Positions 10,805 to 41,258 of a DNA stretch of 41,258 bases are shown piece by piece. Position numbers and translations under genes: made by a program. The stretch is from Novakomyces olei (lineage: Eukaryota). Where the stretch lies: NCBI GenBank assembly GCA_016906335.1, contig JADEYG010000009.1, positions 1,612,001 through 1,653,258 on the forward strand, written 5' to 3'. The notes below the pieces were generated by a model, which was given only the letters and a program-made list of their open reading frames with translations, was not told where the DNA came from and did not search any database. Position 1 is the first letter of the stretch; every line of letters begins with the position of its first letter.

Positions 10805-13672
10805 TTACCATATATTATGCTCCAGCATTGTATTAAATACCCAGTCTGTATCGCTGCTTTGGATCGAATTTGCTAATGCCATTAATTGGGTTGCTGTTGA
10901 CCCATCAACAAGGACGAGATCATCACTTATTATCGAATTAGCAGTCGGCCAAGCTTCCTCTGGAGTAATTTGATCAACCGCGTGTGCTAATTCCGGAGGC
11001 ACTAGAGCACTGGATGAAGGTAAATTCACGTTTGATGCTTGGGGATTTATTGGATGCCCATTGTCGTTTGATGTACTAGACTCGCGTTCGAAAGAGCGCA
11101 TTGAATCTTCCCGTGTTATGTAGTAAATATTAGAACTCAGCTGCTGAAGCTCTGAGCGACGATATTTCGCAATAAGATTGCCGCTTAAAACCATTTCTTT
11201 AAAGACTACATCCGCTTTTTTCAACCAGATTTCCCTGTCTTTTAAAAGATCTTGATTAATGGCAGAGCACGTTAAGAGAATGACGGTAGAAACGGATATA
11301 TTCTCAAGATCATGCGCCAAAAATGTTTCTTTTACACCGTTAGCCGCTAGTATTCAAGCAAGCAAAATATATTAATTCGCAAACATTAATTCAACCACGA
11401 AAATTAAAATTTATATATAAATACCGAAACTCAAGATCAAAAGCAAACAAAAACTTTATCAAGAAATGAAACATTGAAGCTTAAAAAAGAAGACAACGAA
11501 CTAAATTGAAATTCATTATTTTACCTAGTAGACCTTGTGATTGAAGTCTATTAAGAATATTAGTTATTTGCTGTGATGATTCGACACATGTACGCATAAG
11601 ACTGCTGACGCTATGCGAAGAATATAGAAGGTCTAAAAGTGATTTCGAAGCTTTTAATCGGATTTTCAATAGGCAGAAAGCCAGTGGACGAATTGCAAAA
11701 ACGATACACTTGTCTTTTAGTAAAAGCTGGCATCAAAGAATCCAGAAAATAGGCTAAGGCATCTTTATACTCTTACCTGGTGATACAAAAGATGAAGATG
11801 CGCTGACGTCCTGGAAACTCCACTTGTTTCCTTGTCAGATTGTAAAGGAAAAGTACTGCGAAGTTCATCGTTTAATTCTGCCAAATTCGATAATGCCGCC
11901 TTTGTGCTAAGTAAAAATGTTCGGTTTAGTCTTCCTTGAAGAGCATACACAGCTATTTTGTTAATTGTACGTATAAGATCATAGCAGCTATAGTTGCACT
12001 TACTGTTGTTAATTTTCGCAATAACTCTGGAGAGCTTTAAATGCATTTGAAGCGAAGTCGTCATTTCTGCCAATCCGGGAGAGCTTATAGGCATTATATT
12101 TGTGGCATCGTTGCTTAGGTATTGAGGTAGACCCATCAAAGAAGTCATCTCAAGATCTAAAACGTATATAGTCCACCATATTTTAGTGCATCTTGCGACT
12201 GTCTTTTCTCCTAGAGACTCTTTGGACATGGCAGTGTGCATGCCTTGCGCCATAGCCATTCTAACAGCTTGGCCAATCTATTTTATAGTTAGACAAAGAT
12301 CAAACACTAAAGGCAAAAGGAAAATTATCGAGCAAAGACCAAACATGGAAGATTTAAAACATCAATATTCAGATATCGAAATATTTGTTAATGATATAAA
12401 CACCAGAACCCCGAATTAATAGAAAAGACCTGATATCAGCTTACATAATTGTGAGCTGAGGCTCTATAATCAATTGCTTGGTAATAGAGCGCGATACAAG
12501 TCAAGATTTCTATAGATTGCACGTAATCGCGATACAATGCAGAAGGGTCCGGTAAGAGTTGCAGAGCCTTTACAAAAAAGACGGCTCCCGGCGGTCTATT
12601 ATTGCTAAGACCCTTTTGCTGCGCGAAGCCTTTACCGAGCGCTAAAATAAGCAGGAAGTGAATGTACCACAAGCTGTTTTTAGACAGTGCGGAACAATCG
12701 TCCGAATAAAATTCTTGTAAATTCTGCATAAAGACATCCTCGTCGTATAAATGATATAATTGCCCACAATGAAACTTGACGGTATTGATAAGGTAAAGGG
12801 TATAATCTAACGTAGGGATCGGAAGAGAACATTCGTCACTAACATTAAACCGCAGCCCATCCCAGCCCGTATCATACGTCGACTCATCAAATATTAAAGC
12901 GTCCGTTGGCAAAGGTCTTTCGTACAAGTGCAGATAGGTCATGCTCAGAATTCTGAGTATAAACGACCAATTTGACGATGTTCCCATATAGACTAAGAGT
13001 CAGCATTTTGAAATATGCAGGAAAGAGAGTAGAAAAGTTAAAAATAAAATGAATAACTGTTTGTCGTGTCGAAAAAACATTGATAAATCAAAAGTGCTAT
13101 TAGAGGCAATAAAACTGAACGTACAAGTTCTCCCGCGCGATGTTGACATGTATGCAGGCGGCCCTGAAGAAAGCGGGTTTGGTAGACTCGCTGCTAATTC
13201 TTCAGTTTGCCCTTGCTCATCGATCCCTTGATTAACAGAGCTGCTGTAGGCCTTATTGGGCTCTTGATGAGATATATCTTTATCAGTTTGTATATGCCCA
13301 GAGCCTTATAACCCATACCGAAATTTTGGGAGTGATCTAAAGACTGATCTTGTTCCATCTTGCTCTGTTCCATGGCAGCTATTTTCTGCTGCAGTCGCAA
13401 AACGTATCTGAGATTAGTATATCTCTTCATTGCCCCTAAATATTAGCCTTTAAATAATTACCCTTTAGTCACGAGAATCCGCTGCTCATGGCCATCAAAA
13501 ACACACGCGAGGTTGCGTTTGCCGCATACATCGCACGGTTGAGTACCAGAACACTTGATTTTGAGCCTTCGACATCGCGAGCATCTAATACGGTACATTT
13601 AGCTTACGCATAATATTGTCAAACTTACGCGTTAGGGGCCCTTTTGTTAACCCGGTGAGCATTGCCCGCCAT
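10805..13672 (-). CDS. Zn(II)2Cys6 transcription factor with fungal-specific TF domain, Put3/PrnA-like; multi-exon
   Basis: Spliced N-terminus MAGNAHRVNKRAPNA|CSRCRRLKIKCSGTQPCDVCGKRNLACVF (intron 13585-13628; missed by the ORF track), a coiled coil, then YMGTSSNWSF, FHCGQLYHLYD and KIWWTIYVLD..SLMGLP, as seen in proline-utilisation-type regulators. Confidence 0.85.
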
Positions 13673-14584
13673 TGCCGCCCGCCTTTGGGCAGAGTGATGT
13701 ATGTACCCCGAATAGACGGCGATACTGCACTATTATTTGTATTTTTATCAATTAATATAAATAGAGAGTGAGTGGGGAAATGTAGGAGAACGCTTGCCAT
13801 AGTAAAATAAAAGGCATATGTACGAGGTCAGACAACGACATGATAAGGTCGATATGCGATGGGCAAATAGGCTTTGTCGCTATTGAATGTGGGAAAGTAA
13901 AATCTGCTTATTATGGGACTAGATACCATCGTTGTGATCATTGCTGAGCTATAGTCAGGCGAAATTCAAAACGAGGGAGAGTATTTATAAAAGTGGTCTA
14001 TTAGGAAGCTGTGCCGTGGTGCAACACAAAATGCAGCATACCCAGGAAATTATTCCACATGAACGCTTTCAAGTTTGATTTGTGCTTGCACCTTTTCACT
14101 CATGTCATAAACTTTTAACAAAGCAATTTTAACTGAAAAATATAGCCTCCACTTTTTTTTTTTTTTTTTGCGCAAATGAGAATTTTATTTTATTTTATTT
14201 TTTTCTTCAATAAAATTGTATGCGGCAATTGATCACTTTTGCTGAGCAAGACAAATCAAATTTTCCTTCATATCAGCCGACAGCACTGTCTTCTTACAAC
14301 TTCCAATCATTTTGAAAGACTTGGATGGCCAATTTTTTTATTTGCAGGGTTTGCGATACCAGATTGCCAGATAATATAGTAAACTTTGTTATAATTGATT
14401 CAATTGTTGGCAACCGAATGCTGGAATTTTTACAAATTGGGGGCAAGAGAGCCAGAAAACAGGTCGCACATAGAATAAGACTTTTAATCCAATCTGAGTG
14501 AAGAGAAAACGGCCAGCGCTTCTCGTCCTTTCGGAACGATAATTTGTTATCGCTGCTTAAGCAAGCGCGTCACATACATCCAAT

Positions 14585-14598
14585 CGGAAACGTTCCCG
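14585..14598. promoter_or_regulatory. CGG-N8-CCG candidate Zn2Cys6 site (TF/oxidase divergent promoter)
   Basis: CGGAAACGTTCCCG. Confidence 0.6.
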
Positions 14599-14689
14599 AT
14601 CGCTGAGTGGGTACGATATAGTCAATACTGATAAAGTGAGAAGGAGCTTACCTTTGTGTTACTTTCTTTATTCTATAAATACCTGTTAT

Positions 14690-14703
14690 CGGAAGCGCTA
14701 CCG
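14690..14703. promoter_or_regulatory. CGG-N8-CCG candidate Zn2Cys6 site (oxidase promoter)
   Basis: CGGAAGCGCTACCG. Confidence 0.6.
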
Positions 14704-14857
14704 CGAGATACGTGGGCGCAATGTAACCTGCCTTTCGGAGAGCGATCTGGTCTTACATCAGATACTCCATCTTTATGGACTTAATAAAGACTGAGTAACT
14801 ACTTGAACTTAATTAGCAATTACAGTTCTGCTGCTTTGATATTTGAAGACGCGCAAT

Positions 14858-16283
14858 ATGAAAATTCAAAAGTCAGACCCAATAATCATAGTTGGTGGGG
14901 GCGCTTATGGTCTTTCGACTGCACTCCATTTGTTGCAAGATGGTTTCACCAACCTATCCGTCTTTGAAAAGAGCGAGACAATTCCTCCTTTACAGTCGGC
15001 TGCGAATGATCTCAACAAAATTGTGCGAGCGGAATACGAGGAGCCATTCTATTCGGATTTGACCTTGGTAGGCAGTATACTTTTTTTCAATAAACATATT
15101 TTTGTTCAATTTTGATCCGGTTTAGACATCGGCATAAAATGTTTTGTGCTATCATCTTTGGCTATTTACAGTTTTATTAATTTATCAGAAAGCAATTGAA
15201 GCTTGGAAAACTCCTCTTTTTGCGCCACATTTCCACCAAGTTGGTTTCGTCCACTGTGTGTCTGGAGCTGCTCCACAGGAAGCACAAAACACTCTAAACA
15301 GGTTCCAGAAGGCGGCGGAAAATAATCCGGTTCTAAAGCCTCATGTGAAACCAATTAACGGGCCCGTCGACGTGCATGAAACTTGCTGGCAATTCAATCA
15401 GGGCCAAACGCCAGGCTGGAAAGGCTACGTCAACTACTATGACGGTTACGCACACTCAGGAAATGCTCTTGTTTCTGTCTTTCGAGCCACAATTTCATCT
15501 GGCGTAAAGTACTTCTTGGGGCCTCAATACGAAGTCAAGAAAGTGATTTACGGTAAGCCTGTGTCTCAGAATTTTGCCGGTGTTCAAACAAAAGACGGTA
15601 AGATTTATAAGGCCGCGCTCGTTATTGTAGCGGCTGGAGCGGCAGTTGGACGCTTGATTCCAGAACTTGGAAGGCAAGTCGTTGCTAAGTCTTGGTCTGT
15701 AGCCCATGTCCATTTGACGGACGAAGAAACGTCGGCTTTACGTGGAATCCCTGTCACTTATGCCCGTGATTTAGGCTTCTTTTTCGAGCCTGATCCAAAG
15801 ACAAATTTGTTGAAACTGTGTCCCATGGGTGGTGGCTATATCAATACTGACCCAATGAATGGAGTATCTTATGCTCCGGAGTCTTATGGAGATAGTGCGT
15901 TTATGCCAGAGGAGGACGAAAAGAAAGTACGGCTTTTACTAAAGCAAACCCTACCTTATTTGGCCGATCGCCCTCTGGTGCAAAAGACACTTTGCTGGTT
16001 TGCCGATACAAAGGACACAGATTTTATTTTCGATTATGCCCCAAATTCTAATTCTACAGTACTTGTAATGTCTGGTGACTCTGGCCATGCTTTCAAGATG
16101 TTTCCAATAATTGGTTCATGGATCGTCGATCTTTTGAAGGCTCCCAATGGCCAACAGAATACAAAGCGCTGGCGCTGGAAGGAAGCTAACGACAAAAAAG
16201 AGAAATGGGCCGGAGAAGTCAGCTGGCGGCTTGGCGCAAGCACAGAGTTTGCGGATATCAAGCAGCCAAGGTCCAAACTATAG
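14858..16283 (+). CDS. FAD-dependent amine oxidase of the monomeric sarcosine oxidase / L-pipecolate oxidase / fructosyl-amino-acid oxidase family; peroxisomal; 2 exons (intron 15068-15188)
   Basis: IIIVGGGAYGLSTALHL, SAANDLNKIVR, LCWFADT (covalent-FAD Cys), GDSGHAFKMFP, C-terminal SKL (PTS1). Confidence 0.9.
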
Positions 16284-16790
16284 ATCTTGGCAACAGAATT
16301 GGGATTATTATTATTAGAATTATTTTTAGGTAAATAGTAAAAACATTTTCTTTTGAATTGGGAATCATGCTGAGCTTGAACAAATTAGATATAATAAAAA
16401 TCAATTGAAATCGGGGAAAAATTACAGTGAAATGCAAAGGTGTAGTGTGAAGAAGAATGGGCAGCAATGTGAATTTACTAATGATAAGATTTGTCTTTTG
16501 TCCTTCGACAGAGGCAGCTGCACTAAATTAATAAGATCAGATATTTACAAAAATACAGTGCATTCTGACCTATAAAATTGCTCCTCGAGTTATAAGACAG
16601 ACATAATGCGGGTAAGTGCTTTAGAACCTTTTTGCAATATGTAAAAAAAGGCTTTTTAACCTAAGAGACAACTGTAATTTAGATTGTATTAGCCAAATTG
16701 TTGAAATGAAACTTTTTATCATATCCGTCTATATATTTATAGTGACTCGAGACCTGATCAGCTAAAACTGGAGATGCTGTCGCGAACAAC

Positions 16791-18774
16791 TTACTCGTTG
16801 CTTGGATATAAGAAACCGACCTGGGGAAAAAATTCTTCCTTGATCAAACGAGGATTACAGAATTTGCGTAATACGTCTGAGCTGCCCGCCTTATCGTTCG
16901 TACCGCTAGCTCGAGCGCCGCCGAAAGATTGCTGACCAATTAGAGCAGCAGTAGTTTTGCAGTCTGTGAAGAGTTAGAATTATTACAAAATAATAAATAA
17001 AACAGCTAAAATAAATGAACGTACTGATATAAAAGTTTCCGGCAGAATAGCGGAGCTCATTTTCAGCCTCTCGGATGATTTTCCGGTCCTGAGCGAAAAT
17101 AGCACCTGTAAGGGCCAACCCGCCACCGGCCTGGTCAACAGTCTTAAGCATCTTTGAGAAATCGGCATCAGGGTAAACGTAAACAGTAAGAACAGGCCCA
17201 AAGATTTCCTCATTGAAAAGCCTATGCTCCGAACTCTTTGCAACGTAGACAGTAGGCTTGACATAATATCCCACAGAATCATCATAACTACCACCAGCAA
17301 TGCACTCCAAGCTGGAATCGCTATTGCTCTCATCGATAATCTTCTTGATCTTATCGAAAGAGCGTCGGTGAATGACGGGGCCCATATAAGCTTCCATATC
17401 CTTGTCCGGGTTGCCGATAGTAATCTTGCTGATACCATCTTTCAACAGAGAGAGAAACTCTTGTGCTCGCGATTCCGGAAGGTACAAACGCGAAGTTGCT
17501 GAGCACTTTTGGCCCTGGTACTCAAATGATCCACGGATAGTGTGGTAAACAGCACTTGGAATATCAGCGGTAGAGTGAACAAGATGGAAGTTCTTCCCAC
17601 TTGTCTCAGCTACAACACGAGGAAACTCGCGATAAGATTTGCTGGCAATTCCTTGACCAATACGGCCATAAAGAGATCGAAAAACATCAGAAGACCCAAT
17701 AAAATTAAGACCAGCGAAGTCACGGTGTTTAAAGACCGCGTCGTTGATGATCTCAGGATCACCAGTGACGAATTGAATTACATTCTTTGGCAGACCTGCT
17801 TCCAAGAGGATTTTGTATACCAGATAACTGGCATAGACGCTAGAGGGAGAAGGCTTCCAGAGAACCACGTTGCCCATAAGAGCGGGAGCAGAGACCAAAT
17901 TACCTCCTAGAGCGGTAAAGTTGAAGGGAGAGATGGAATAGACGAAACCCTCCAGAGGCCGATAGTCGAGTCGGCTATATTCAGGTTAGAATTGTGAACA
18001 AGGTATAAAACTGCAATACGCTAGTAAGATTGAGTATTATATATTTGAACATTAACCGAGCAGACACAAAAGTAAGCCAGGGAATCATACCTCCACATTC
18101 CATCACTGCCCCGGTCAGGCTGTCTAGCAAAAATTTCTGCGGCATAATTACAGTTCAATCGAAAGAAATCGGCCAATTCGGCGGCAGCATCAATTTCAGC
18201 TTGCCAGATGTTCTTTCCTTGGCCTAACATAGTGGCTGCAATAATCTCATATCTGTACTTTCCAGTCACCAATTCAGCTGCCTTTAAAAAGATGGCTGCA
18301 CGATCGACGAATGGTGTGTTCTCCCACTCCTTCTTAGCACTTAGGGCTGCTTCAATGGCCTCAGAGACTTGCTCCTTTGTCGCAAGAGGGTAATTAGTGA
18401 ATTTAATTGCGTGCTCTGCTGGTAAAGGCTGATCCCATGATTTTTCGCTACTGTGCGATTTGCCATCGAATACAATTTCGCTTTGCAAAGGCAATTGAGA
18501 TCGGAGTCTCTTTAGAACAACTTCCAACTTTTCACGTTCCTCTGAACCCTTTTTATAGTGTAACTAGAACAAATTTAGCAAACAGTTTGGTTAATTGATA
18601 GCAAAATAAAGAATTTTTTGAACGGATTGGAGGAAAGTTTTTGCATTGGCGTACGTTAGACTCGTTTCTGGGATCAGGTAAGCGAAATGGCATGGTGGTG
18701 CTTGTTCGAAGTTGAACAAACCGACCCGCCTGGCGCATTGATCGCGCATTAGAGATTAATGATAATCTAGCCAT
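16791..18774 (-). CDS. PUT2: Delta-1-pyrroline-5-carboxylate dehydrogenase (ALDH4), mitochondrial; 4 exons
   Basis: Presequence MARLSLISNARSMRQAGRF; MLGQGKNIWQAEIDAAAEL, ISPFNFTA, ETSGKNFH, FEYQGQKCSATSR (catalytic Cys), EEIFGPV, GGARASGTNDKAG, end YPSNE*. Probably a cluster-specific paralog. Confidence 0.95.
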
Positions 18775-18927
18775 ATTACGATGTGCTGACGCCTTGCTTT
18801 TGTATAAAATGCTGTTACACCGGAAGTCTGAAAGCACAAGAACTGGCTTGTCAAAGAGCAGGCTGTCCCCTTTATACATCTGTTATCGGATAATAATTAT
18901 TATAATTCAGCTACAATAAATGTACGT

Positions 18928-18941
18928 CGGATGCTTTCCCG
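18928..18941. promoter_or_regulatory. CGG-N8-CCG candidate Zn2Cys6 site (P5CDH promoter)
   Basis: CGGATGCTTTCCCG, ~155 nt upstream of the ATG at 18774. Confidence 0.6.
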
Positions 18942-19479
18942 ATGGTTATTTTTTCCTTATCTTGTTTCCATATCGGACGGAACACTCCAAATTTGGAGTG
19001 GCGGTAAAGTGCGAATATATCCCTAGACACAAATCGCATTTGAATGGAATATGGAGAGCGAAGCAGACCATGTATTTGTAAGAAATTCTGTATTTTGATG
19101 TTTTCAAACTAAAATGACCCCAGCTGTCAAATGTTTGCGTGTTGTTTTGGGACTATTTTGTATCATGTTGATGAACCATGTGATGTGTTCAGTACTAGCA
19201 AGTGATGGTTAAATGTATATGTATTTTTTTCTAATAAACAATTACCTAAAACTACTGAACTTGTCGTTATAATTAACAGTGCTTGTAGAGCTATGGGAAA
19301 AGACATGCTGACCTAAGAAAATTCTGCAAAACATGTAGTCAGAAATAATTACCAATAAAATGTGCCGTCCTACTTAAAAGCCAGATAAACTTTGGACGTG
19401 AATTGAATCTCTTTAGCCAACTGAAGAATCTCATATTTTAATGAAGCAGATCAATACTGTAAAATCTATTTAAAACATT

Positions 19480-20453
19480 TTAGTGCCTTGTATCGTTAAT
19501 GTGGGGTACACTTCCCATAAGGCGGGCTACGGTAACTGCTTCACGCACAGCTCGTCCCAAATGACCTCGAACCCCTGCTTCTTCCATGACCATCACTCCA
19601 GCGATTGTACAGCCTCCAGGTGAAGTGCCCTGATCCCTCAATTCCGCTGGAGATACCCCACTTTGAAGAATACCCGCTGTACCGCGCATAGACTGAAATA
19701 TCATTTTACGGGCAAGACTGCGGGGCACGCCAACAGCGACAGAAGCATCAATCATAGCATCACAAACAATTGAGAAAAATGCGGGCGTAGAGCCAGCCAC
19801 AGCAGTAGCTGCATCCATCAATTTTGGTTCAATTTGGACTGTTTCGCCAATTTGTTCGAAAATGAAATTTGTCAAGTAAAAAAGGTCCTCTGGAGGTTTT
19901 GGATCTGATACTTCAATAGCAGTCAGAGACTGTGCAACCTGGGAGGCAACATTGGGCAAGGTACGAACAACCCAAGCCCGATCTTTTGTATGGTTCTCAG
20001 CCGTAGTTTTAGATCCGTAAAGTGCTTCTTCCAATTCTGGTCTTGTCCAGCCAGCAGCTACACTTATCAAAAGTTTGCCCTTCAATACCTGACGAAGAGC
20101 GTCATTGTTCAGTACCTCTGCAATCTCGCTAGGTTCAACGCCTAAGATTATAGTATCTGCCTCCTCGACCGCTTTGACGTTCTGGCTTCGATAAACTGAA
20201 AGCTTGTCCGAGTATTTGGAAAAACGAGCCTCAAGTCTTGAGCCCGACGCTTCGCTGCGTACGCATGCAATGAACCGTGAAAAGGGGAAATGTTTCGCGT
20301 CTTTTTCAACAGCGGCAAGTAGACCGCCTAAAATGGCAACGCCCATGTTTCCTGCCGACAGAGCGAAAATTCAGGTCAGAGAAATACTTCAAAGGTGTGC
20401 TAGGCTAACGTACCACATCCTAGTATACACAGAGTCAAGTTACTAGGAGCCAT
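19480..20453 (-). CDS. PRO3: Pyrroline-5-carboxylate reductase; 2 exons (intron 20352-20413)
   Basis: Spliced ILGC|GNMGVAIL, LLISVAAG, VVRTLPN, TAVAGSTPAF, TSPGGCTIAG. Confidence 0.9.
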
Positions 20454-20904
20454 TATATACAATAGAGTCTGCAATGGAGTTAAAGCAAAGCCTAAGCGCG
20501 TCCGGTTTTGTCTGGTCTACTGCTGATATTAATTTATTATATACGCTTGAAAAACAGAGAGTATAGTGCAAATCTTTCGATGCGTTATCTTCCAAATCTT
20601 CGGTATACGTGTGATAAAGCATTTAAATGGGTTCTATCGGGATTCGGATCCGATGATATCTTGTGCGGGATATATAAAACGGTGTGTGTGGGCGTAATAT
20701 TAAATATAGTCTGAAATGGATAAGTCCGATAAGAAACTAATGAAATAATCTGCAAACTTTTTGGCGCTATTATTACTAAAATTTTCATAACTGGATCTAC
20801 ATAATCGATAACGGAAGGGTTTTACTCATACCTCGTAATCATCATTTATCTAAATTTCTTTTCATCGCTTAAATGTTCTGTGTTCAATTTGAAAATCAGG
20901 ACTT

Positions 20905-22432
20905 CTATGTAGAGACAGCTGGTAAAAATCGAGAAAAACATCTCCGGGCCAGCTCCTTCTTTAAAGCTTTGTGTTCATCACCAGTGCGTGCTACAGCGTC
21001 TCTATTTTCAACAGCTCTGCGAAGAAGGTACGCCAGACATTCAGTCATCGTTCCCCATTGCGAGCACTTGTAAACCTCTGGAGTGCCGCTGTTGTCCTTC
21101 ATTTGTAGTAGAGAGAAACTGACTTCGTCGGACATTCCATGAAGCTGTCCAAATCGAACTGGTACCGTTGGTAAATTGTGCTCGATTCGATGCTTGTGAA
21201 GATCGTGAGCTTCAATTACACTTTTCTTGTTGTGGCTTGCCAAGAAAAGGTTAACCAATGGGAATGGCTTATCAATACCAAATTGTTCAAACTGTTGTTT
21301 AAGTACAGACTGAGAGATGTAGTTGTAAGCATCGTCAGTATTCTCTTTTGTATCGTGGATCAGACACCTCTCGTCGGTATTCATATAGGCGCCTCTGACT
21401 AACTTCAGACCGAGTGTAAATCCTTCTTTTTCAGCCTCATCCATATGCTTGAGGATTGTCGACGGAGTACTTTTCAAGTAAGCCTGATATGTATTATAGA
21501 TAATCGCATAGCCGTCCCTGTTATATTTGCGCATGAGAACCATGCCGGCTTTGAATATTCCCCATTGGAAACGCTGAGATTCAGCATCAATGAGGATGCG
21601 AATACCGCGAGATTTGCATTTTGTAGCAATTTCATCCATAGCATCAACTGCTTGTTGTGACGGAAGTTCGTTCCGTGCTAAAGCCGCCGCAACATTAGGC
21701 CCGGCTCCAGTCATTCTAAAAATTAGTTTAAAAGAATTTTCTAAAAAAGTCTTGAACCTGTTTCGGTTTCAAGGCTTTAGCGCCTTCTTTCACTTACTTT
21801 AGAGCCAGATAGTCCCCTTCTTCCAGAAACTCCACAGTCAATAAAGTTCCGACCCGCCAGGATTCTATGTTTGCACACTTAGCAAGAGCTGGGTCTACAG
21901 ACAGTCCCTTTTCTTTTTTTTCCAACACCGCCATTCCTAAGCCTTGCTCTGTTCTTGTTTTATGATCGAAAGTTATCTCCTTCGCATAAGTCATAATCAT
22001 GCCACGAAACCCCATATTTTTTATTTGCCGAACGGTAGATTTGACTTGATCAGCATTTTCTCCAGAACAAAACTGATTGTAAAACGTTTTCTTCAGAAGA
22101 TTTTTTAACAAAGGGTTGCGATCGACATTATAAATAACTGATTCTCCTGGGCTTGAGATTTTTGTTAAGGCAGCAAGCGCTGGAGTAAGAAGATATGGTT
22201 TTGATGAGACTGTTGAAACGAGCAGTGACCTTAAAAGGATAGGAGTCGGTATCGCAGACAGAGGTGGTAACGCAGATGTCTCAGCAGGCTTATCGAGCTG
22301 CTCAGCCCGTACCCCGGCACTTGAAGAGGAGGACTGGATTCCCCTGACAAAAGATCGATCAAGTAATTTTGAAGAATTTGCAACCGACTTTAAAAGATCT
22401 AGTCTAGAATTTGACACAGCAATACTTGCCAT
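20905..22432 (-). CDS. PUT1: Proline dehydrogenase family, likely hydroxyproline dehydrogenase; mitochondrial; 2 exons (intron 21716-21797)
   Basis: TFYNQFCSGEN, ALK|MTGAG, LIDAE, YNTYQAYLK, GLKLVRGAYM, ASHN, GQLHGMSD, VYKC..WG..YLLRRAVEN; N-terminal presequence. Confidence 0.92.
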
Positions 22433-22769
22433 TTCGATCTTACTTCTGTCAAGTTTAGTTTTTCGAATCTAGTATTTGGAGGTTCAAGGAGATGGAGCTT
22501 TGATTTAAAGGTGGTAGACTCCATCTCTTATCAGCATATCGAATCATGCCTATTAGATTCTTTATTCATTCTCGGGTTTAGTTTCCGTGTCAGGCACGAC
22601 AGCGGTAAATACAGATTATTTTTGCTTTACAAATTGTCATTACTTGATTGTTCGCCATGCCCACAATTGCCGCCTGGAACTCCTGTCATCGGCCAATCAA
22701 AGACCACTATCTTATCAAGGGTGGAAAAAATAAAAAAATACACTAACCCTCTCCTTTCGGACATGACAG

Positions 22770-22846
22770 CGGGAGCTCTTCCGTCCGCCATATTGTGGAG
22801 ACAGGGCAGTTTTACCGACGATGCTGCCGACACGGCAAAGCTCCCG
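22770..22846. promoter_or_regulatory. Two CGG-N8-CCG candidate Zn2Cys6 sites (PRODH promoter)
   Basis: CGGGAGCTCTTCCG at 22770-22783 and CGGCAAAGCTCCCG at 22833-22846. Confidence 0.6.
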
Positions 22847-23277
22847 ATTACTTTCGTATGAAGTTGTTAAACAGGCACAGTAATCCCAGTCCGCTAGCAG
22901 CATTTATAAGCAAAGTTATTACAGTATTTTACTAATTTTATTGCGGCCTAGAACGAGAATCAATTGGTCTTCAGATGAAAGGGAAACCGATTTCTTGCCA
23001 AACTCCATTTCTCTAAAAGACGAGGAAAAACTGCTAGTTTTTGTCATTATATACTTCTAGACTCTTATTTCTAGTATTGCTCTAGCCGCCATCAAATCCA
23101 TATTAACGTTCGTTTTCATCGGCTTCGAACTTCTATTCAAGGATTAATATAATAAATAAATAATGCCCAAAATATTTGCCCGACGAGTTTTACCATTGCT
23201 CAATTAATGATACAATATTTATGCAAGTTCTTACATCTAAGCTTTGACATTTATATGATTAAAATTGGCTATGGCAA

Positions 23278-24789
23278 TTATCCTTTTAGCGCGTTGGCTA
23301 TAGATTTCGCCACGTACTCAACATTTCCTGGATTAAGACCAGCAATGGAAATACGAGAATTTTCCGCCATATATATATGGTATTCCTCTTCATTTGTTAG
23401 AACAATCGATTATTGGATATAAGATGATAACAAACCTTTAAGTTTCCGAACAATCTCCGGAGACAATCCAAGAAAGCCGAACATGCCAGTCTGCTTGATT
23501 AAATGGTCCCAAGTCCCAGGGGCACCTTCGATATTAGTCAACAGTTCTAGTCGATATGATTTAAATGAAATGCTGAAGGAGATACCTAATGAAAGCAGAT
23601 TCTCATATAATCTTTCCCTCATCAACCGAATCCTTGAGCTCATAGTAATCAAATCTCGGAACCATTCTTGCCGAAGATCATCATTGGTTAGAATATTTGT
23701 AGCGATTTTAGCCCCGTAAGCCGGAGGATTGGAGATTTCAGATCGCTGCAGCATTTCAAGCATAGATTGACTATTAATAGCTGACGTTGTGCTGTTCGTC
23801 TTGAGAACAAAGCATCCAACTCGTTCTCCTAGAAAGTAAAAACAGTCAAATAACTTTCAGAATAGAAATGCAACACCCAAATTTCTAATTAACATTAAAA
23901 AATTCATCTTTGTCAAGCTTCTTACCATAAAGACCCATATTTTTAGCAAACGATACACAAACTCCAGCTTCCATATGTAATTCGCCGATGATGTAGTGAA
24001 TAGCAAACGCGTCGTTATCAATATTTCCAGAGTTAAATCCCAGATACGCGGCATCAAGCAGAGGGAACATTTCTTTAATTTTCAACAATTTGCACAATTT
24101 TACCCACTGATCTCGGCTTGGATCACAGCCAGTTGGATTATGAGCACAACAATGCAAAATGACAACTGACTTATCATCTGCCGCTTCCAAATGAGAATAA
24201 TACGTATCAAAGTCCAAATCTTTAAATTCTTCATTATAATATTGCAATTTTTCACACTTGAAGCCTAGCGAAGAGAAAACTTGGAAATGATTCGACCAGG
24301 TTGGCACAGGAATATAAATTTTTGGTAGAGTTTTTGGATGACATGCCCTTAGAAGCGCTCCTGCCACATGCAAAGAGCCAGTGCCCGATAAGGTCTGACA
24401 TGTTGCAATCTGAGATTAGCCCTTGACCAATTAATCTCATTTATAACATTTTAGACACATTCGAAAATGAATAGATGTTATACCTTGTCTTGAGACTTTG
24501 CATAAATCTCTGAGCCCAGAACCAGCTCGGCAACAGACTGCCTAAATCTAGGCAGTCCTAGAATTGGAAGGTATTCATGATTCAGACCCTCATATGCTAA
24601 GCTTTCGCGGCTTTTCCTGACAGATGGCAGGATCCATGGTTGTCCATTTTCATCACGATATGTCCCTTGTCCCAGATTGACTTTTCGTGTATCAGTGTCT
24701 TTCTGAAACTGTGCAGTCAGTGCAAAAATAGCATCAGGAGGAACGTATATGGCGCACGCCAGAAAAGACGGCGTCTCGTCTTTTGTCAT
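23278..24789 (-). CDS. Aspartate aminotransferase family (class I PLP); candidate 4-hydroxyglutamate transaminase; ~5 exons
   Basis: PPDAIFAL, KVNLGQGTYRD, HEYLPILG, PTWSNH, LHCCAHNPTGCDP, SFAKNMGLYG (PLP Lys), RSEISNPP, QTGMF, SRISIAGLN; no obvious presequence. Confidence 0.92.
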
Positions 24790-25046
24790 TTTTGCCGATC
24801 CTGCTATTGAGCCCAAAATAATGGGTTCTTTTGAGAGGCACAAGGCACGTAGTCCTATATTATATGTACATATATATATTTGCCGGACCTCATCGAGTGT
24901 TCTGCGCTTTCGCCTTTATACATAGCTCCAATTCTCCAGAGATTACAATAGTGCTATAAGTGAATTGAGGTCAATTTTCACGTTATTGGAAGTATCTTGA
25001 GTTGTTCTCATTAACCCTGCGATACTTTTGCGAAGTTTCTTGGACA

Positions 25047-25060
25047 CGGAAGCGATCCCG
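25047..25060. promoter_or_regulatory. CGG-N8-CCG candidate Zn2Cys6 site in the ~410 bp divergent aminotransferase/aldolase promoter
   Basis: CGGAAGCGATCCCG. Confidence 0.6.
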
Positions 25061-25197
25061 TTCATATCAAAGGCGCCCACTTAAGATTGATTAAATAAAT
25101 GTTCAAGTTATTGAGAGTATAATTTAGCGCGCTTGGAACGACTTAGCAAAATCCCGTCTAGCAGCCAAACCTACGAGTGCTCTGCCGCAAGATAACA

Positions 25198-26157
25198 ATG
25201 ACAAACCATCCTAAGTTGCACGTTCCATCATCAGGCGTTTGGTGCCCGGCCATAACCTTCTTCAATCATGATACGGACTCATTGGATTTAGACTCACAAT
25301 CGCAATATTTTTCGTACCTGGCGAGATCAGGGCTCACTGGACTCGTTATACTTGGCACCAACGCGGAGGCTTTTCTGCTGACCCGTGAAGAGCGCAAGCA
25401 GCTTATTGCAACAGCCCGCGAATCAATTGGACCCGAATTTCCGATCATGGCCGGTGTCGGAGCCCACTCTACAAAACAGACGTTAGAACTTGCTCAGGAT
25501 GCTTATGAAGCGGGGGCTGACTACTTACTGGTTTTGCCTCCCGCTTACTTTGGCAAAGCCACCACCATAAGCGTGATAAAGAATTTTTTCGTTACTGTGG
25601 CAGCCAAAGCCCCGCTTCCAGTCGTCCTGTACAACTTTCCCGGTGTTTGCAATGGCGTCGATTTGGATTCAGATACAATTACGGCGATTACACGCGAAGC
25701 GCCTAATCATAATGTTGTGGGAGTTAAACTGACTTGCGGATCTGTCGGTAAGATCACCCGTTTGGCAGCAACATTTTCGCCTGAAGAGTTTGCCGTGTTT
25801 GGTGGTCAGTCTGATTTCCTTATTGGCGGTTTAGCGTCCGGCAGCGCAGGATGCATTGCCGCGTTTGCAAACGTTTTCCCAAAAACTATCTCTTGCATCT
25901 ATAGGCTGTACAGTGAGGGCAAATATGAGGAAGCTTTGAAATTGCATCAAAAGGCAGCCCTGGCTGAGAGTGCTATCAAGGGAGGAATTGCTGCTACAAA
26001 ATATGCTGTAGCCTACCATCTGGAATCTGCTGGAGTATTCAAGAGCATTACTTCAAAATTGGAGCCAAGGCAGCCATACGAGGCTCCTAGCGAGCCAGCT
26101 AAGCAAACTATCAGGGAAAAACTAGCTGAAGTTGCCAAGATTGAATCAAATCTGTAG
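25198..26157 (+). CDS. DHDPS/NAL-family class I aldolase, probable 4-hydroxy-2-oxoglutarate aldolase (HOGA1-like)
   Basis: GLVILGTNAE, LTREER, MAGVG, LVLPPAYF, LYNFPG, VVGVKLT (Schiff-base Lys). HOGA specificity is inferred from gene context; the same family includes L-threo-3-deoxyhexulosonate aldolase. Confidence 0.85.
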   Translation: MTNHPKLHVPSSGVWCPAITFFNHDTDSLDLDSQSQYFSYLARSGLTGLVILGTNAEAFLLTREERKQLIATARESIGPEFPIMAGVGAHSTKQTLELAQDAYEAGADYLLVLPPAYFGKATTISVIKNFFVTVAAKAPLPVVLYNFPGVCNGVDLDSDTITAITREAPNHNVVGVKLTCGSVGKITRLAATFSPEEFAVFGGQSDFLIGGLASGSAGCIAAFANVFPKTISCIYRLYSEGKYEEALKLHQKAALAESAIKGGIAATKYAVAYHLESAGVFKSITSKLEPRQPYEAPSEPAKQTIREKLAEVAKIESNL

Positions 26158-26834
26158 ACAAAGGTTTAAAGAGACGCCAGGTATATAAAGAAAAATTGTT
26201 AATTAGCACTGTATTTAAAATTTGGTCTGTGTTCCCGCTGATATTGAAAACTTTTTGGTGTAAATTGTTGTAAATTTGTTATGACCTTATTGGAGACCTA
26301 TCGTAACTTGACAATCTGAAGGGATATCTGCCAGGTCCACTATACTAGATGCTCGACACAACAGTTTTGAGAAGGTTGGATTTCAGCTGGTCGAATAAAT
26401 TGGATTAACCGAGCAACACTTTGTATAATTAGGATGAAACAAATAATTATACTTAGGGGAACTGTCTTCTACCGCCTTTTTTACAGGAGCAAGAGGAAAT
26501 CAAAATTGTAAGTAGAAAAAAGCACATCCTACCTTTTGTTGATTATTGCCGAAAAACATTAATTATCATTCGAGTTCATGCGTTCAAAGTGGATTCGCCC
26601 GCATCAGGTTTGACTTTTTCTTCATTACAAGAGTCGTTCTTAAAAAAATCTAAAAACCTGAAGGTACGATTTGAGGTACGAGAGCTGTAGTTTGATCTTG
26701 ATTGAGAGCACGCCAGAGTTCACCGAGTACTTCGTCTAAGTTTCGGACGATGAGTATAGTATGTGCAGTCAGCACTCAATCCGGCAAAATTAAGCGCTCG
26801 GAGAAACTCCATTTTTTCAAGCCAATCAAAGATT

Positions 26835-26896
26835 AAATCAATTATCAGATTAATTATCAGATTAACTATCAGATCAATCAGATTAATTATCAGATT
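26835..26896. repeat. Short tandem repeat of ~TTAATTATCAGA (4-5 imperfect copies) forming a GATA-site array upstream of the OPT gene
   Basis: attatcagat taattatcag attaactatc agatcaatca gattaattat cagatt. Confidence 0.75.
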
Positions 26897-27133
26897 GCGA
26901 CATCGGCAATATGGTCTGGTTTAGTCAGCGAAGTTATTATTTTTTTCCTGTGTTTATCTCATACCCACTCTGCTGTTGTAAGCACATTGTTCTGCGCACA
27001 TTCAAATGCCGATGGCCGCTTTGTGGACTGATGCAGTTCGCATGTCGAATATCCACCACGTTTCGCAGAAGGCATAAAAGCAAAAAGATACAGACACACA
27101 AGGCATTTGGTCTTTAAATTCTAATCCGACGCA

Positions 27134-29715
27134 ATGCTGACAGGATCTGACGTAGAAAAAAGTCAGAATACTCGACCTTTAGACGACGAAATGGCAACGG
27201 CGGTGCTCAAGGATGGAGAATTGGCTTCAGAGCATGAAGTTAGAGATGACAGGTCCAGCGCAGACTCTTCCTCTTTTATTTCCAGCAATGATCTGGACAA
27301 AATTACGCAAATAGACGGTTCCAATGTGCTCTGTGCCAGTAAGTGCTTAATAAAATGTTCCTCGTGTCTAAGCATGTAGCCCTGCGGATGTGGGTAATTG
27401 CTATATTCCTGGTGACTATCGGTGTTGCTGTCAATTCCATATTTATGTTTCGTTTCCCTTCCGTAACAATTTCGGCCATTGTTTTGCAGATCGCCGCTTT
27501 CCCGCTCGGACGGCTTTGGGAGATTATTATGCCAAACAACTCTATATCTTTGTATAGATGGAGTATACCAATAAACCCCGGGCCATTTCACGTGAATGAA
27601 CATTGCTGCATTTTTATTATGGGCAATTTAGCCTTACCGTAAGCACGAAATTGCTCAAAAAGAAAAAGACGAAAAAAGAGAATCTTTTTAGGATCAGAGA
27701 TGCAAGAAACTGTTAATGGAAACGAGAACAATCTCGAGGCAAACCCTTGATCCCCAATCAAAAGCAGCTTTCAAAGAGACTTACAATTCTAGCATTCGCC
27801 TGAGTTCAGAAATTTTGTTAGAAATAAAACACTATTGGAAGCAAGATTTCAATGGGGGTTTCCAATATCTTTTTACAATCTCTGTTATGCTATTTGGACT
27901 GGGTATGGCCGGGATGTCAAGGTCCATTCTTGTAGACAACCCGGACATGCTTTGGCCTTCTAATCTCGGCAACATTGCTTTGCAAAACGTATTGCATGGC
28001 CGCAATTCTCAATCAAAAGAACTTACAGGCTGGAGAATTTCCGTTTACTCCTTTTTTATCTGTGTTCTTTCCGGCGCTTTTGTTTGGCATTGGTTTCCGG
28101 ACTTTATTTTCCCGGCTTTAAGCACTTTGGGTGCCTTTATCAGCTGGTGCAAGCCGTCTTCAGCTACTCTTGCCCAAGTATTCGGAATGAGCACAGGCAT
28201 GGGATTGTTTCCACTAACTTTAGATTGGAGCCAGATCGCCAACTTGGGCTCACCTCTCACCACACCGTGGTGGGTGATTACAAATATGGCTTCGTCAATT
28301 GTGTTTTGGCTGTTTATTGTTACCCCGGCACTGTACTATTCTAATGTTTGGGATTCTGCTTATTTTCCTCTGCTGAGCAACAAACGTGAGTTTGTCTCCA
28401 ACCCCTTTGCATTTAACAACAGATTTTAAGCCTTGCCTACCGCCGTTTACGTATTTATTATTTGACTTTAAATTTTTATTTTTGCTTAGTCTTTGCCGTT
28501 ACTAATAGGCCAGTTTATGACAAGAACGGTAAAAGCTACAAGACCGACAGAATACTAAGCGGCATCACTTTCAATGAAGAAGGGTACAGCAGCTATTCCA
28601 GTATCTATCTGCCTATTACATACGCTCTTTCTTTTGGATTGGAGTTTGCCACGATTAGCAGCACTATAGTAGACGTCGGTCTAAACGAGTTGCCTAAATT
28701 CTTTAAACCTCACCGTGATAAAAGCGCAACAGAAAATGTGTACAATCAAATACAAGTAAAACACAATCCGACACCCTACTGGTGGCACGGATCTATCCTT
28801 ATAATTGGCTTTGCTCTTATGATGGCAGCATCTCAAGGCTGGGGTACACAAACGCCTTGGTACGCTGTGATCGTAAGCTGTCTTATTGCTCTCGTTACAT
28901 TTGTTCCTTTTGGCGTGTTGCGAGCTAAAACAAATCAAAAGGTTTCAATTATGGTCCTGATGCAAATTATTGCGGGTTACTGGTTTCATGGAAGACCACT
29001 ATCTGTAATTTTTATGATGGCTTTTGGGTTTTTGTCGGCTGATAAAGGTCTGGCATTTGCACAAGACATGAAGTTTGGGTATTACCTGGGAATCCCACCG
29101 AGAACTGTTTTCTTTGTACAGCTTGTTGGAATACTTTGGTCAGGTCTAGTGGAAGTTGGCGTCGTAAATTGGACGCTGGCAAATGTGGCGCACGTTTGCA
29201 CTAAAGACGCTTATAATAACTTCAATTGCCGGTTTGCCCAATCACATTACAATACGAATATAATCTGGGGCGTTATTGGACCTCAGAGAGTTTTCGGCGA
29301 GACTCATTATGGCAAACTATATTGGTTCTTTCTCATTGGTGCAATATTGCCAGTCATCAGGTTCGTTATACTGCGCTTTAGGCCTAAATCTTTCGTGCGG
29401 CTTGTCAGTATTCCTTTGTTCTTTAGTGGCGCCAGCAATATTCCAACCATAACTGGTGTTAATATTACGTCTTGGGCAATCGTTGGTTTTGTTTTCAACT
29501 ACGTCATCCGCAAAATAAACAGAGCCTGGTGGTTGATCTACAATTTTCCCTTGAGCGCTGCGCTGGATGCTGGTACCAGCATTGCAACGATCTTAATATT
29601 TCTTGTCATTAATTTGACTGGGGCGAGTAGTAGTTTTTCCTGGTGGGGGACAACTGTCGCAGGGAAAGGCTGCGACGCGGAGGGCTGCCCCCATTTAAAT
29701 ATTGCCAACAGCTAG
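27134..29715 (+). CDS. Oligopeptide transporter (OPT/Isp4 family); 4 exons (introns ~27339-27379, 27639-27792, 28386-28513)
   Basis: TLRMWVI, NPGPFHVNEH, MLWPSNL, WHWFPDFIF, TLDWSQI..GSPLTTPWW, QDMKFGYYLGIPPR, WGVIGP, LSAALDAG, SWWG. Confidence 0.95.
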
Positions 29716-34545: not shown

Positions 34546-34919
34546 AGTGAGAAGAATTAGGGTTATTTAGTTCTAAGTGTATGAATGTTAGGGTTAGTAA
34601 TTTATTATAAGAGAATGATAGCATGTTGGGGGAAGAAGTTTATAAAATAGAGAATGGTAATGGGGGTTAGGGTTATGGAGGAATAATGTTTGGTAAAATG
34701 ATGTATGGGGATTAATGTATGGGGGAATAATGTATGTAGGAATATATATGGTATAAATATAAGTATTTATTAAGCATGGAGACTAATATAAATATATTCA
34801 AAAAATATATATTCAAGACGAAGCTATTGCGAAATTTCATTTATGTGTAATGTAATTCTTAGTCTTTAGCTTATTAATTATGTATCTTAGCGGTAGTAAA
34901 TTCACTTTGCCAAACAGTC

Positions 34920-41172: not shown

Positions 41173-41258
41173 TAGTTAGGGTTAGTTAGGGTTAGTTAGG
41201 GTTAGTTAGGGGTTAGTTAGGGTTAGTTAGGGTTAGTTAGGGTTAGTTAGGGTTAGTC
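41162..41258 (+). repeat. Telomere: (TTAGTTAGGG)n, 8 full units (one with an extra G) preceded by one TTAGGG
   Basis: Tandem G-rich 10-mer running to the end of the sequence, G-strand 5'->3' toward the end. Confidence 0.95.

Follow-up and report, generated by a model that had tools for sequence, protein, structure and literature searches.

Among the closest described counterparts of the locus analyzed here is the mammalian mitochondrial pathway for 4-hydroxyproline (Hyp), with the enzymes PRODH2/HYPDH, ALDH4A1, GOT2 and HOGA1. Among fungi, the prn cluster of Aspergillus nidulans (prnA, prnX, prnD, prnB and prnC) brings together a Zn2Cys6 regulator, a proline dehydrogenase (PRODH) and a delta-1-pyrroline-5-carboxylate (P5C) dehydrogenase with divergent promoters, as passages of PMC5983819 describe. 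Bacterial Hyp clusters are mentioned in parts of PMC5144071. In general, the bacterial lhp/hyp clusters are dedicated and regulated Hyp catabolons with DAO-, DHDPS- and ALDH-family genes, and their route runs through an epimerase, a D-Hyp dehydrogenase, a deaminase and KGSA dehydrogenase. Single genes of the locus also resemble fungal and bacterial DHDPS-family 2-keto-3-deoxy-acid aldolases (such as yeast LRA4, the L-KDR aldolase), as well as amadoriases (fructosyl amine oxidases) and the sarcosine/pipecolate oxidases of peroxisomes. No description of a fungal hydroxyproline cluster was found in the literature searched; an excerpt of PMC2526178 reports slow growth of A. fumigatus with Hyp as nitrogen source.

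The window (the whole stretch of 41,258 nucleotides that was analyzed) carries at 10805-29715 adjacent genes for a regulator, an FAD oxidase, a P5C dehydrogenase, a P5C reductase, a PRODH, an aminotransferase (AT), an aldolase (ALD) and an OPT transporter. Families were assigned by Pfam, NCBIfam and PDB sequence searches, which located all eight where the original prediction had placed them; intron positions are from our own splice-site models, predicted without RNA confirmation. We read the window as plausibly a subtelomeric catabolic cluster for Hyp with its own Zn2Cys6 regulator, a reading in which we infer all substrates and to which we give about half of our confidence. If it is true, the fungus degrades hydroxyproline, which is characteristic of collagen and of the walls of plant cells, via an animal-type route. 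Parts of the gene group recur in many other fungi. The four enzyme families and their logical order are those of the mammalian pathway. A specialised PRODH paralogue would oxidise Hyp to 3-hydroxy-P5C, which the P5C dehydrogenase would turn into 4-hydroxyglutamate; the aspartate-aminotransferase-like enzyme would then provide 4-hydroxy-2-oxoglutarate, for putative cleavage by the DHDPS-family aldolase to pyruvate and glyoxylate. A telomere-like (TTAGGGTTAG)n run closes the window (41165..41257, plus strand) and probably places the cluster ~11.5 kb from the chromosome end.

Unlike the mammalian genes, those of the window are clustered with a regulator of their own. Its gene (10805 to ~13600-13680, minus strand) encodes a complete six-Cys Zn2Cys6 finger (~13583-13503) and a Fungal_trans domain (PF04082 in Pfam, 11765-12277, E 4.6e-6), with an uncertain 5' end: translation may begin at an ATG at ~13598 or in an exon farther upstream, near 13670. 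The factor had been called Put3-like; the Zn2Cys6 assignment stands, and the Put3 part is weak, with just 3 of 120 listed relatives automatically named proline utilization trans-activator. Two further genes encode enzymes that the animal route does not use, which counts against the Hyp reading. The FAD-dependent amine oxidase of the amadoriase/sarcosine-oxidase group (14858..16283, plus strand; DAO PF01266, E 1.2e-14) is modeled with 434 residues and a single predicted intron (15068-15188). It has the DAO fold, the N-terminal GGGAYG dinucleotide motif and a C-terminal SKL, and among solved structures it comes closest to fructosyl amine oxidases (PDB 3djd; amadoriase II, E 3.7e-48); for amadoriases, genomic company of a regulator, a P5C dehydrogenase and an ALD was not found described in the literature searched. 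The P5C reductase (19480..20453, minus strand; 303 residues, one predicted intron) matches P5CR_dimer, F420_oxidored and TIGR00112, the last with 206.7 bits, above the cut-off of 196.75. We would guess that the SKL-tagged oxidase gives an imino acid or N-substituted amino acid a second way into the pathway, through peroxisomes, and that the reductase turns (hydroxy-)P5C formed outside mitochondria back into the imino acid, which would enable mitochondrial entry and keep a toxic intermediate low.

The remaining enzymes belong to families of the mammalian scheme. The P5C (glutamate semialdehyde) dehydrogenase (16791..18774, minus strand; Aldedh E 1.1e-68) is modeled with 571 residues, three predicted introns and a basic, hydroxyl-rich N-terminus; a single 316-residue exon scores 445 bits on TIGR01236 (NCBIfam). 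The AT (23278..24789, minus strand; 410 residues, four predicted introns) has Aminotran_1_2 matches in three exons, and its best solved relative is the yeast cytosolic aspartate aminotransferase 1yaa, in an alignment that includes RSE.SNPPAYGAKI. Across the divergent AT/ALD promoter (24790..25197) lies the intronless ALD gene (25198..26157, plus strand; 319 residues), a DHDPS-family class I aldolase (PF00701, E 2.6e-43) and candidate 4-hydroxy-2-oxoglutarate aldolase. Read from the gene models with no predictor, AT and ALD differ from their mammalian counterparts in having no N-terminal extension, and the last two steps may thus be non-mitochondrial. The OPT-family oligopeptide transporter (~27191..29715, plus strand) is an approximate model of ~790 residues with at least three introns and only approximate splice sites; PF03169 matches in three ORF pieces and TIGR00727 gives 325 bits from one exon.

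In the PDB search ALD matched 3qfe at E 3.5e-140, HOGA1 at E 7e-30 and bacterial DapA at E 6e-34; against the Hyp reading, by sequence it is not nearer to HOGA1 than to DapA. Lys177, Tyr145, Tyr117, Asn55, Thr179 and Asn152 of ALD align with Lys196, Tyr168, Tyr140, Asn78, Ser198 and Asn173 of HOGA1, whose roles, including those of the three positions that set HOGA apart from DHDPS, are described in PMC3188589. The catalytic Lys and Tyr are common to both enzymes, and at the three distinguishing positions ALD has Asn, Thr and Asn, retaining the HOGA1-unique Asn78 and Asn173 with Thr in place of Ser198. Also against the Hyp reading, the ALD loop is GTNAE versus G-X-X-G-E. Some clusters combine an ALD relative of 58-62% identity with a dehydratase of the enolase superfamily, an SDR, an MFS transporter and a Zn2Cys6 factor, and 4 of 120 listed relatives bear the JGI name 2-keto-3-deoxy-L-rhamnonate aldolase. 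The dehydratase of these sugar-acid clusters is glucarate-dehydratase-like, far under the model cut-off, and does not imply rhamnonate activity. The closest LRA4 homologue of A. niger, at most a possible orthologue of the window ALD, is not rhamnose-induced (PMC5674754). The window differs from such clusters in having no dehydratase, and the amino-acid-context ALD clades differ from the sugar-acid one in eight alignment columns, among them those with Ser182 and Thr267 in the former and Ala and Val in the latter. The HOGA-like residues are absent from these columns and are therefore no discriminator of substrate.

The PRODH (20905..22432, minus strand; Pro_dh PF01619, E 1.5e-48; 481 residues, one predicted intron) belongs to a "type-2" clade. 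In our tree it groups with fused or linked relatives in a clade of 22 leaves (support 1.0), separate from representatives of 39-48% identity, one of them automatically named PrnD; in Aspergillus hancockii both types occur, with one PRODH each. On this phylogeny the window PRODH is a distinct paralogue, apart from the automatically PrnD-labelled type, and, unlike the mammalian enzyme, arose within fungi. Merged GenBank gene models from Fusarium, Colletotrichum, Neofusicoccum, Scytalidium and Aureobasidium reveal AT-PRODH-P5C reductase and regulator-PRODH adjacency, with gene order and strand as in the window, and the AT-PRODH-P5C reductase collinearity recurs across several fungal classes. Among 120 listed PRODH relatives, seven are fusions with a downstream P5C reductase homologue (58-61% identity), four with AT and seven with a regulator domain. 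Regulator relatives of 49-63% identity adjoin PRODH genes in other fungi, and in six assemblies the regulator and PRODH locus tags are 2-8 apart. In several Penicillium assemblies, however, the best ALD match has a locus tag distant from the PRODH-regulator pair, which speaks against the Hyp reading. So would the window copies of PRODH, P5C dehydrogenase, P5C reductase and AT if they are the organism's sole ones, as they could be.

Linkage around ALD was surveyed in 80 metagenome loci (61 distinct genes) by tblastn searches of the flanks for partners. At least one pathway partner (AT, P5C dehydrogenase, PRODH, regulator or oxidase) lies beside ALD in 14 of the 80 loci, or 11 of the 61 distinct genes, in three arrangements. 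An AAT-family gene adjoins ALD in 11 loci, a P5C dehydrogenase (70-73% identity) in six, the regulator and the FAD oxidase in four each, and PRODH is near in one. In none of the 80 loci did tblastn place an OPT next to ALD. Flanks of 5 kb or more on both sides are available for 21 distinct ALD genes; of these, only four have a pathway partner, six have the enolase-superfamily dehydratase, SDR and MFS transporter, and 11 have neither; most well-flanked orthologues are unlinked or in sugar-acid contexts, which counts against the Hyp reading. The claim of a Hyp cluster keeps the enzyme logic, the recurrent linkage, the PRODH paralogy and the HOGA1-like ALD residues in its favor, with Hyp itself inferred. 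That the cluster is self-contained is doubtful, as the OPT, correct as to family, has no conserved linkage to back its membership and as the oxidase and the reductase fall outside the animal route.

These two enzymes are better accommodated if the same enzyme chain serves a different imino acid or N-substituted amino acid, or a mixture of such compounds, with the amadoriase-like oxidase as the true first enzyme; cis-4-hydroxyproline, an N-alkyl, opine-like or Amadori-type compound and pipecolate-like rings are candidates. The oxidase would yield (hydroxy-)P5C outside mitochondria, and P5C reductase would turn it into the imino acid, which mitochondria could then oxidise, the role this reductase has in yeast arginine breakdown. 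This accounts for a reductase kept beside PRODH, which the animal route does not. The SKL terminus is consistent with it, as are solved relatives that cleave N-substituted amino acids and the company of the oxidase (homologues of 45-58% identity) with the regulator in both regulator-bearing arrangements (L002, L033/L034 and L062). We nevertheless hold it rather unlikely: an aldolase that requires a 4-hydroxy-2-oxo acid and receives it from an AAT-type enzyme speaks for a five-carbon dicarboxylate hydroxylated at position 4, for which there are few other natural precursors, and the sequence names no substrate.

The core of regulator, PRODH and P5C dehydrogenase is also that of Aspergillus prn in the passages of PMC5983819, and an ordinary proline cluster with AT, ALD, oxidase and OPT as unrelated neighbours would suit the automatic regulator names and the Penicillium pairs lacking a nearby best ALD match. 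It is distinctly unlikely, given that ALD is repeatedly linked with AAT-family genes, P5C dehydrogenase, regulator and oxidase in other fungi, that the PRODH falls outside the PrnD-labelled type, both types coexisting in A. hancockii, and that a PrnB-type permease was not found by a Pfam scan of the window ORFs. Relative to prn, the window adds AT, ALD, P5C reductase and the oxidase. Sites of one promoter motif, CGG-N8-CCG, precede AT/ALD as well as PRODH and P5C dehydrogenase, which also speaks against an ordinary proline cluster. Enzymes of three superfamilies present here (DAO, DHDPS and ALDH) also serve the bacterial Hyp pathway; if that route applied to the window, pyrroline-4-hydroxy-2-carboxylate would arise from the oxidase and be deaminated by the DHDPS-family protein, with 2-oxoglutarate semialdehyde left to the aldehyde dehydrogenase to oxidise. 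The dehydrogenase, however, is of the P5C type (445 bits, whereas the model for 2-oxoglutarate semialdehyde dehydrogenase gives 144), a proline-racemase-type epimerase was not found by Pfam in window ORFs of at least ~100 residues, and PRODH, P5C reductase and the conserved AAT gene are left unexplained, making this highly improbable. Least probable of all is precursor supply for a secondary metabolite, with a modified proline or pipecolate made by the oxidase and P5C reductase. Fungal biosynthetic clusters do contain P5C-reductase homologues and amadoriase-family oxidases, and the location is subtelomeric; but no NRPS, PKS or tailoring enzyme was found by Pfam among the scanned window ORFs, P5C dehydrogenase and PRODH are catabolic, and the linkage that recurs involves an aminotransferase, an aldolase and transporters.

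Returning to the Hyp cluster, the promoter motif CGG-N8-CCG, a point of difference from prn, occurs 14 times in the window against 2.41 expected, a count reached in 0 of 100 shuffles. Six sites sit in four cluster promoters, the AT/ALD site at 25047-25060, and a site of this kind precedes ALD in all 12 of the A1/A2 loci. It may be the regulator's site; this link, the compartments and the roles of oxidase, reductase and OPT are all putative. The AAT genes of the three arrangements are just 33-65% identical to the window AT yet all of the AAT family, which suggests repeated recruitment. At L048/L049 and L053/L054 a glyoxylate/hydroxypyruvate-reductase-like dehydrogenase adjoins ALD, which fits glyoxylate as a product.

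The window has a G+C content of about 41% and reads as fungal DNA with short introns. Pfam searches of stop-to-stop ORFs, combined with predicted splice-site gene models, bear out the eight adjacent genes of the original prediction at 10805-29715, together with their families; its Put3-like label for the regulator is the weak part, as three of 120 listed relatives carry the automatic name proline utilization trans-activator. This regulator, a Zn2Cys6 factor, lies on the minus strand between 10805 and about 13680, with its six-cysteine finger at 13583 and a Fungal_trans domain. A FAD oxidase of 434 aa (14858-16283, plus strand) ends in SKL and has fructosyl amine oxidases as best solved relatives (3djd, E 3.7e-48); its DAO fold, dinucleotide-binding motif and closeness to solved members are those of the amadoriase/sarcosine-oxidase group. 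ESM Atlas searches with this protein and with one regulator exon returned generic names only. The minus strand continues with P5C dehydrogenase (P5CDH, 571 aa, 18774-16791), P5C reductase (P5CR, 303 aa, 20453-19480; TIGR00112, 206.7 bits against a cut-off of 196.75) and proline dehydrogenase (PRODH, 481 aa, 22432-20905; PF01619, E 1.5e-48), the PRODH exon having no match in the PDB at E 1e-5. P5CDH is identified by TIGR01236, to which one 316-aa exon aligns at profile positions 165-476 with 445 bits (next model, 213 bits); the TIGR01236 cut-off of 613.6 is a whole-protein value that does not apply to a single exon. An aspartate-aminotransferase-like enzyme (AT, 410 aa, 24789-23278, minus strand), whose best solved relative is yeast AAT 1yaa, keeps the SFAKN lysine in the gene model and, in the alignment to 1yaa, the arginine of RSE.SNPPAYGAKI, which we take to be the distal-carboxylate Arg292. 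On the plus strand stand an intronless DHDPS-family aldolase (ALD, 319 aa, 25198-26157; PF00701, E 2.6e-43) and, in an approximate gene model at about 27191-29715, an OPT oligopeptide transporter. The flanking genes are unrelated to the cluster: ATP12, two NAD-binding/NmrA-like proteins and an MFS transporter (6169-8166, Pfam on window ORFs) upstream, and a helicase ORF downstream.

To our knowledge, the only linear pathway joining PRODH, P5CDH, an AAT-type transaminase and a 4-hydroxy-2-oxo-acid pyruvate aldolase is the animal route of 4-hydroxyproline (Hyp) breakdown, PRODH2-ALDH4A1-GOT2-HOGA1. The window shares with it a PRODH-family flavoenzyme, an ALDH4-type P5CDH and an AAT-type enzyme, and to this extent the animal-type route of the original prediction stands; the residues of ALD, however, do not discriminate its substrate. 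Conserved linkage, a specialised PRODH, a glyoxylate-reductase-like neighbour of ALD in some loci and the ALD residues all fit the animal route. With every enzyme substrate inferred, we put the chance that the cluster breaks down Hyp in this way at about even. A full-text literature search found no description of a fungal Hyp cluster or pathway; Table S8 of PMC2526178, possibly relevant, lay outside that search.

The linkage was followed in JGI/ENA metagenome contigs, scanned with an alignment of 14 ALD sequences (98 confirmed stretches, 80 loci kept), in which partners were sought by tblastn with the window's proteins at E <= 1e-10. An AAT-family gene lies beside ALD in 11 of the 80 loci (L001-4, L010 and L071 at 44-65% identity; L033/34 and L062 at 33-36%; L048/49 at 40%) and P5CDH in six (L030, L033, L034, L037, L062 and L066, at 70-73%), a count that leaves out ALDH matches of 25-26% identity in L008 and L028. 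The regulator and the FAD oxidase are each found in four (L002, L033, L034 and L062), and PRODH in one (L002, 60% identity). P5CR, OPT, the NmrA-like gene and the downstream ORF were each found beside ALD in none of the 80 by the same search. Linkage of ALD to pathway partners thus recurs, with at least one partner for 11 of 61 distinct ALD genes once near-identical copies are collapsed, but most well-flanked ALD genes lack one: where at least 5 kb of sequence flanks ALD on each side (21 distinct genes), four have a partner, six a sugar-acid context and 11 neither.

The linked loci fall into three arrangements. Class A1 has the divergent AT/ALD pair of the window, with oxidase, regulator and PRODH added in L002; class A2 runs P5CDH-ALD-amino-acid permease-AT-regulator-oxidase; and class A3 has AT and ALD followed by a D-2-hydroxyacid dehydrogenase, which has glyoxylate and hydroxypyruvate reductases among its best matches. 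In A2 and A3, AT is likewise of the aspartate-aminotransferase family yet only a distant relative of the window's AT, and therefore AT and ALD seem to have been brought together more than once. Transporters in the other clusters are amino-acid permeases, Aa_trans or MFS proteins and not OPT; the OPT of the window may be a mere neighbour. A 5-oxoprolinase-like gene (16481-19057) lies near the AT-ALD-dehydrogenase group of L048, and a D-aminopeptidase-like gene (14543-15814) near the cluster of L002. In a third recurring context (L023, L057, L058, L061, L064, L069 and L077), a multicopper oxidase gene precedes the ALD relative and one for a cytochrome-b5-domain protein follows it.

ALD itself is 72% identical to Coccidioides PDB 3qfe, a 'putative DHDPS family protein', and shows the features of the DHDPS/NAL class I aldolase superfamily, the TIM-barrel family profile PF00701 and the Schiff-base lysine. 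Rank does not favour HOGA1, the human 4-hydroxy-2-oxoglutarate aldolase, since its match (E 7e-30) is not better than that of bacterial DapA (E 6e-34). Passages of PMC3188589 assign the Schiff base of HOGA1 to Lys196, the proton relay to Tyr168 and Ser77, binding of the distal carboxylate to Asn78 and of the 4-hydroxyl to Ser198 (the last two termed HOGA-unique), and place Asn173 where DHDPS has Arg138. In the alignment to HOGA1, Lys196, Tyr168, Ser77, Asn78, Ser198 and Asn173 correspond to Lys177, Tyr145, Thr54, Asn55, Thr179 and Asn152 of ALD, so that Thr179 replaces Ser198, and the loop is GTNAE, not G-X-X-G-E. These residues fit, short of proving the substrate, an aldolase for 4-hydroxy-2-oxo acids whose distal pocket is polar. 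Relatives of ALD number 1849 at E <= 1e-10 among 5226 candidates from a 5.8-billion-protein collection; the best 120 of them, from Eurotiomycetes and Dothideomycetes, are 65-73% identical, and within these 120 the automatic name 4-hydroxy-2-oxoglutarate aldolase stands on at least 14 rows and 2-keto-3-deoxy-L-rhamnonate aldolase on four JGI rows.

Sugar-acid breakdown and plain proline breakdown are two further settings against which the cluster can be read. Class B, 12 of the 80 loci (L028, L029, L042, L047, L050-52, L059, L063, L070, L075 and L076), places ALD relatives of 58-62% identity with an enolase-superfamily dehydratase, an SDR, MFS transporters and another Zn2Cys6 factor, genes that probably serve a sugar-acid pathway. 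An L-rhamnose assignment for this class was dropped, as the best NCBIfam match of the dehydratase is glucarate dehydratase, far below cut-off, and no rhamnonate dehydratase was matched. Class B forms a derived clade in the ALD tree (FastTree, 90 sequences, midpoint rooted; one locus with an ALD ORF of less than 250 aa left out), and eight alignment columns split it from A1 and A2, for instance Ser182 and Thr267 against Ala and Val. The HOGA-like residues are absent from these eight columns and so are apparently kept in the sugar-acid clade as well. The window ORFs, searched with Pfam, hold neither the enolase-superfamily dehydratase nor the sugar dehydrogenase expected beside ALD in an LRA4-like cluster. 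In A. niger, a portion of PMC5674754 describes the gene nearest yeast LRA4 as hardly expressed and not rhamnose-induced; this gene is at most a possible orthologue of ALD. The Aspergillus prn cluster differs from the window in its PrnB-type permease, whereas the window ORFs have no AA_permease match in Pfam and OPT adjoins ALD; the description of the A. nidulans cluster in part of PMC5983819 also includes prnX, considered here as a possible P5CR, which the paper characterises only as a 40 kDa protein of unknown function.

Of 2025 candidates retrieved with a PRODH fragment, 1015 are relatives at E <= 1e-10, and identity is 60-71% in the best 120. Merged GenBank gene models record adjacency in 18 of these best 120 (proteins P0163, P0188 and P0159 among them): PRODH is merged with P5CR domains in seven rows (five Colletotrichum, Neofusicoccum and Scytalidium), with an aminotransferase in four (Fusarium) and with regulator domains in seven (Aureobasidium). 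Another four of the 120 are PRODH rows wrongly named aspartate aminotransferase. Such merged or misnamed models are annotation errors that happen to preserve synteny. Identity of the fused parts to the window's proteins, by blastp, is 58-61% for P5CR, about 50% for AT and about 41% for the regulator, and their order, AT then PRODH then P5CR, is that of the window. A HMMER search with PRODH matched 1234 of 1.84 billion cluster representatives at E <= 1e-10, starting with one of the close type at 66% identity and continuing with many full-length fungal proteins at 39-48%; the 20 named representatives looked up include dermatophytes, powdery mildews, Sclerotinia and one auto-named 'proline oxidase PrnD'. 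In a tree (FastTree, midpoint root) that joins the window's PRODH to 40 representatives, the 20 named and 20 more, and to 20 of the 120 close relatives, the window type forms a 22-leaf clade (support 1.0), and thus on this phylogeny the window's PRODH belongs to a distinct paralogue clade born within fungi, the same that is seen beside P5CR, AT and the regulator. The auto-named PrnD representative (41% identical) falls outside it; A. nidulans PrnD itself is absent from the tree. Both types occur in Aspergillus hancockii, as one PRODH each, with locus tags that share a prefix.

The regulator search gave 170 matches at E <= 1e-8 among 665 candidates, the best 120 of them at 49-63% identity. Regulator locus tags lie 2-8 from PRODH tags in Penicillium atrosanguineum, P. 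argentinense, P. odoratum, Scytalidium, Neopestalotiopsis and Fusarium lateritium. The modules are not always together, however, since the best ALD match of several Penicillium assemblies has a tag distant from the PRODH-regulator pair. The relative in A. nidulans var. acristatus has 663 aa; PrnA is presumably longer. The window has 14 CGG-N8-CCG motifs where 2.41 are expected, a six-fold excess reached in none of 100 shuffles, and six sites (14585, 14690, 18928, 22770, 22833 and 25047; often CGGAAGCG.T.CCG) fall in the four promoter regions of regulator/oxidase, P5CDH, PRODH and AT/ALD, the eight tallied intergenic regions making up 5885 of the 41258 bases. For 65 loci the sequence suffices to score the 600 bp in front of ALD, and at least one site is present there in 12/12 of class A1 or A2, 3/12 of class B, 8/32 unlinked loci, 4/5 of a further context class, C, and 0/4 of A3; several of the 65 loci are near-duplicates, so the independent count is lower. 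We infer that the motif is a candidate site of the cluster regulator.

The FAD oxidase and P5CR lie outside the animal Hyp route, yet both are conserved with the cluster. The SKL-tagged oxidase could provide an extramitochondrial entry step, and P5CR could convert (hydroxy-)P5C back to the imino acid. Parts of PMC12899673 report that E. coli ProC takes both 4-hydroxy-L-proline isomers as substrates, poorly, and that in some bacteria proC homologues adjoin catabolic genes for Hyp and proline. A wider proposal, which we hold tentatively, its joint chance falling a little short of even, is that filamentous ascomycetes share a widespread modular 'hyp' regulon of catabolic route, oxidase/P5CR shuttle and one switch. 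The fungus-born PRODH paralogue would take the role of animal PRODH2 and, with P5CDH, repeatedly recruited AAT paralogues and the HOGA-like aldolase, would turn collagen or extensin hydroxyproline into pyruvate and glyoxylate; the peroxisomal amadoriase-like oxidase and a dedicated P5CR would form a second entry and shuttle; and one Zn2Cys6 factor would switch the whole set through CGG-N8-CCG sites.

Hydroxyproline is plentiful in collagen and plant cell-wall glycoproteins, and fungi living on animals, plants or litter constantly encounter it. If the Hyp reading is right, it would name a function for a conserved uncharacterised aldolase, including the solved Coccidioides protein, give roles to the second PRODH clade, the aminotransferase paralogue and the amadoriase relative, and imply an independent assembly of the animal route in fungi, in clustered form. 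It would also offer a regulator and motif for testing, and bear on fungal glyoxylate/oxalate production and nutrition during infection. The regulon, if real, would further provide a physiological role for the enigmatic fungal amadoriase relatives and for the silent 'closest LRA4 homologue' of Aspergillus. Parts of the cluster occur in tractable moulds, which makes the reading readily testable. In A. fumigatus, growth on Hyp is slow, according to PMC2526178, which also describes the induction of a proline oxidase and subtelomeric clusters that are regulated together.

At 41165-41257 the window closes with a 10-base unit, (TTAGGGTTAG)n, repeated about nine times, which looks like a variant telomere repeat with its G-rich strand outwards, so the cluster would be subtelomeric, about 11.5 kb from the probable telomere. 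A 438-aa open frame (31244-32560, minus strand) lies in DNA whose G+C content of 49-50% clearly exceeds that of the window as a whole; it has no Pfam match and no relative in the 80 loci. An A+T-rich 15-base unit, AATAATGTATGGTAG or TATAATAATGTATGG, forms arrays at 33435-34128 (about 48 copies) and 39799-40694 (about 59), both with extreme G-over-C skew and flanking the helicase ORF on either side. Between them, an OrsD-like ORF (34878-35846) and a 1063-aa ORF with DEAD, Helicase_C and ResIII domains (35792-38983) look like a subtelomeric helicase element.
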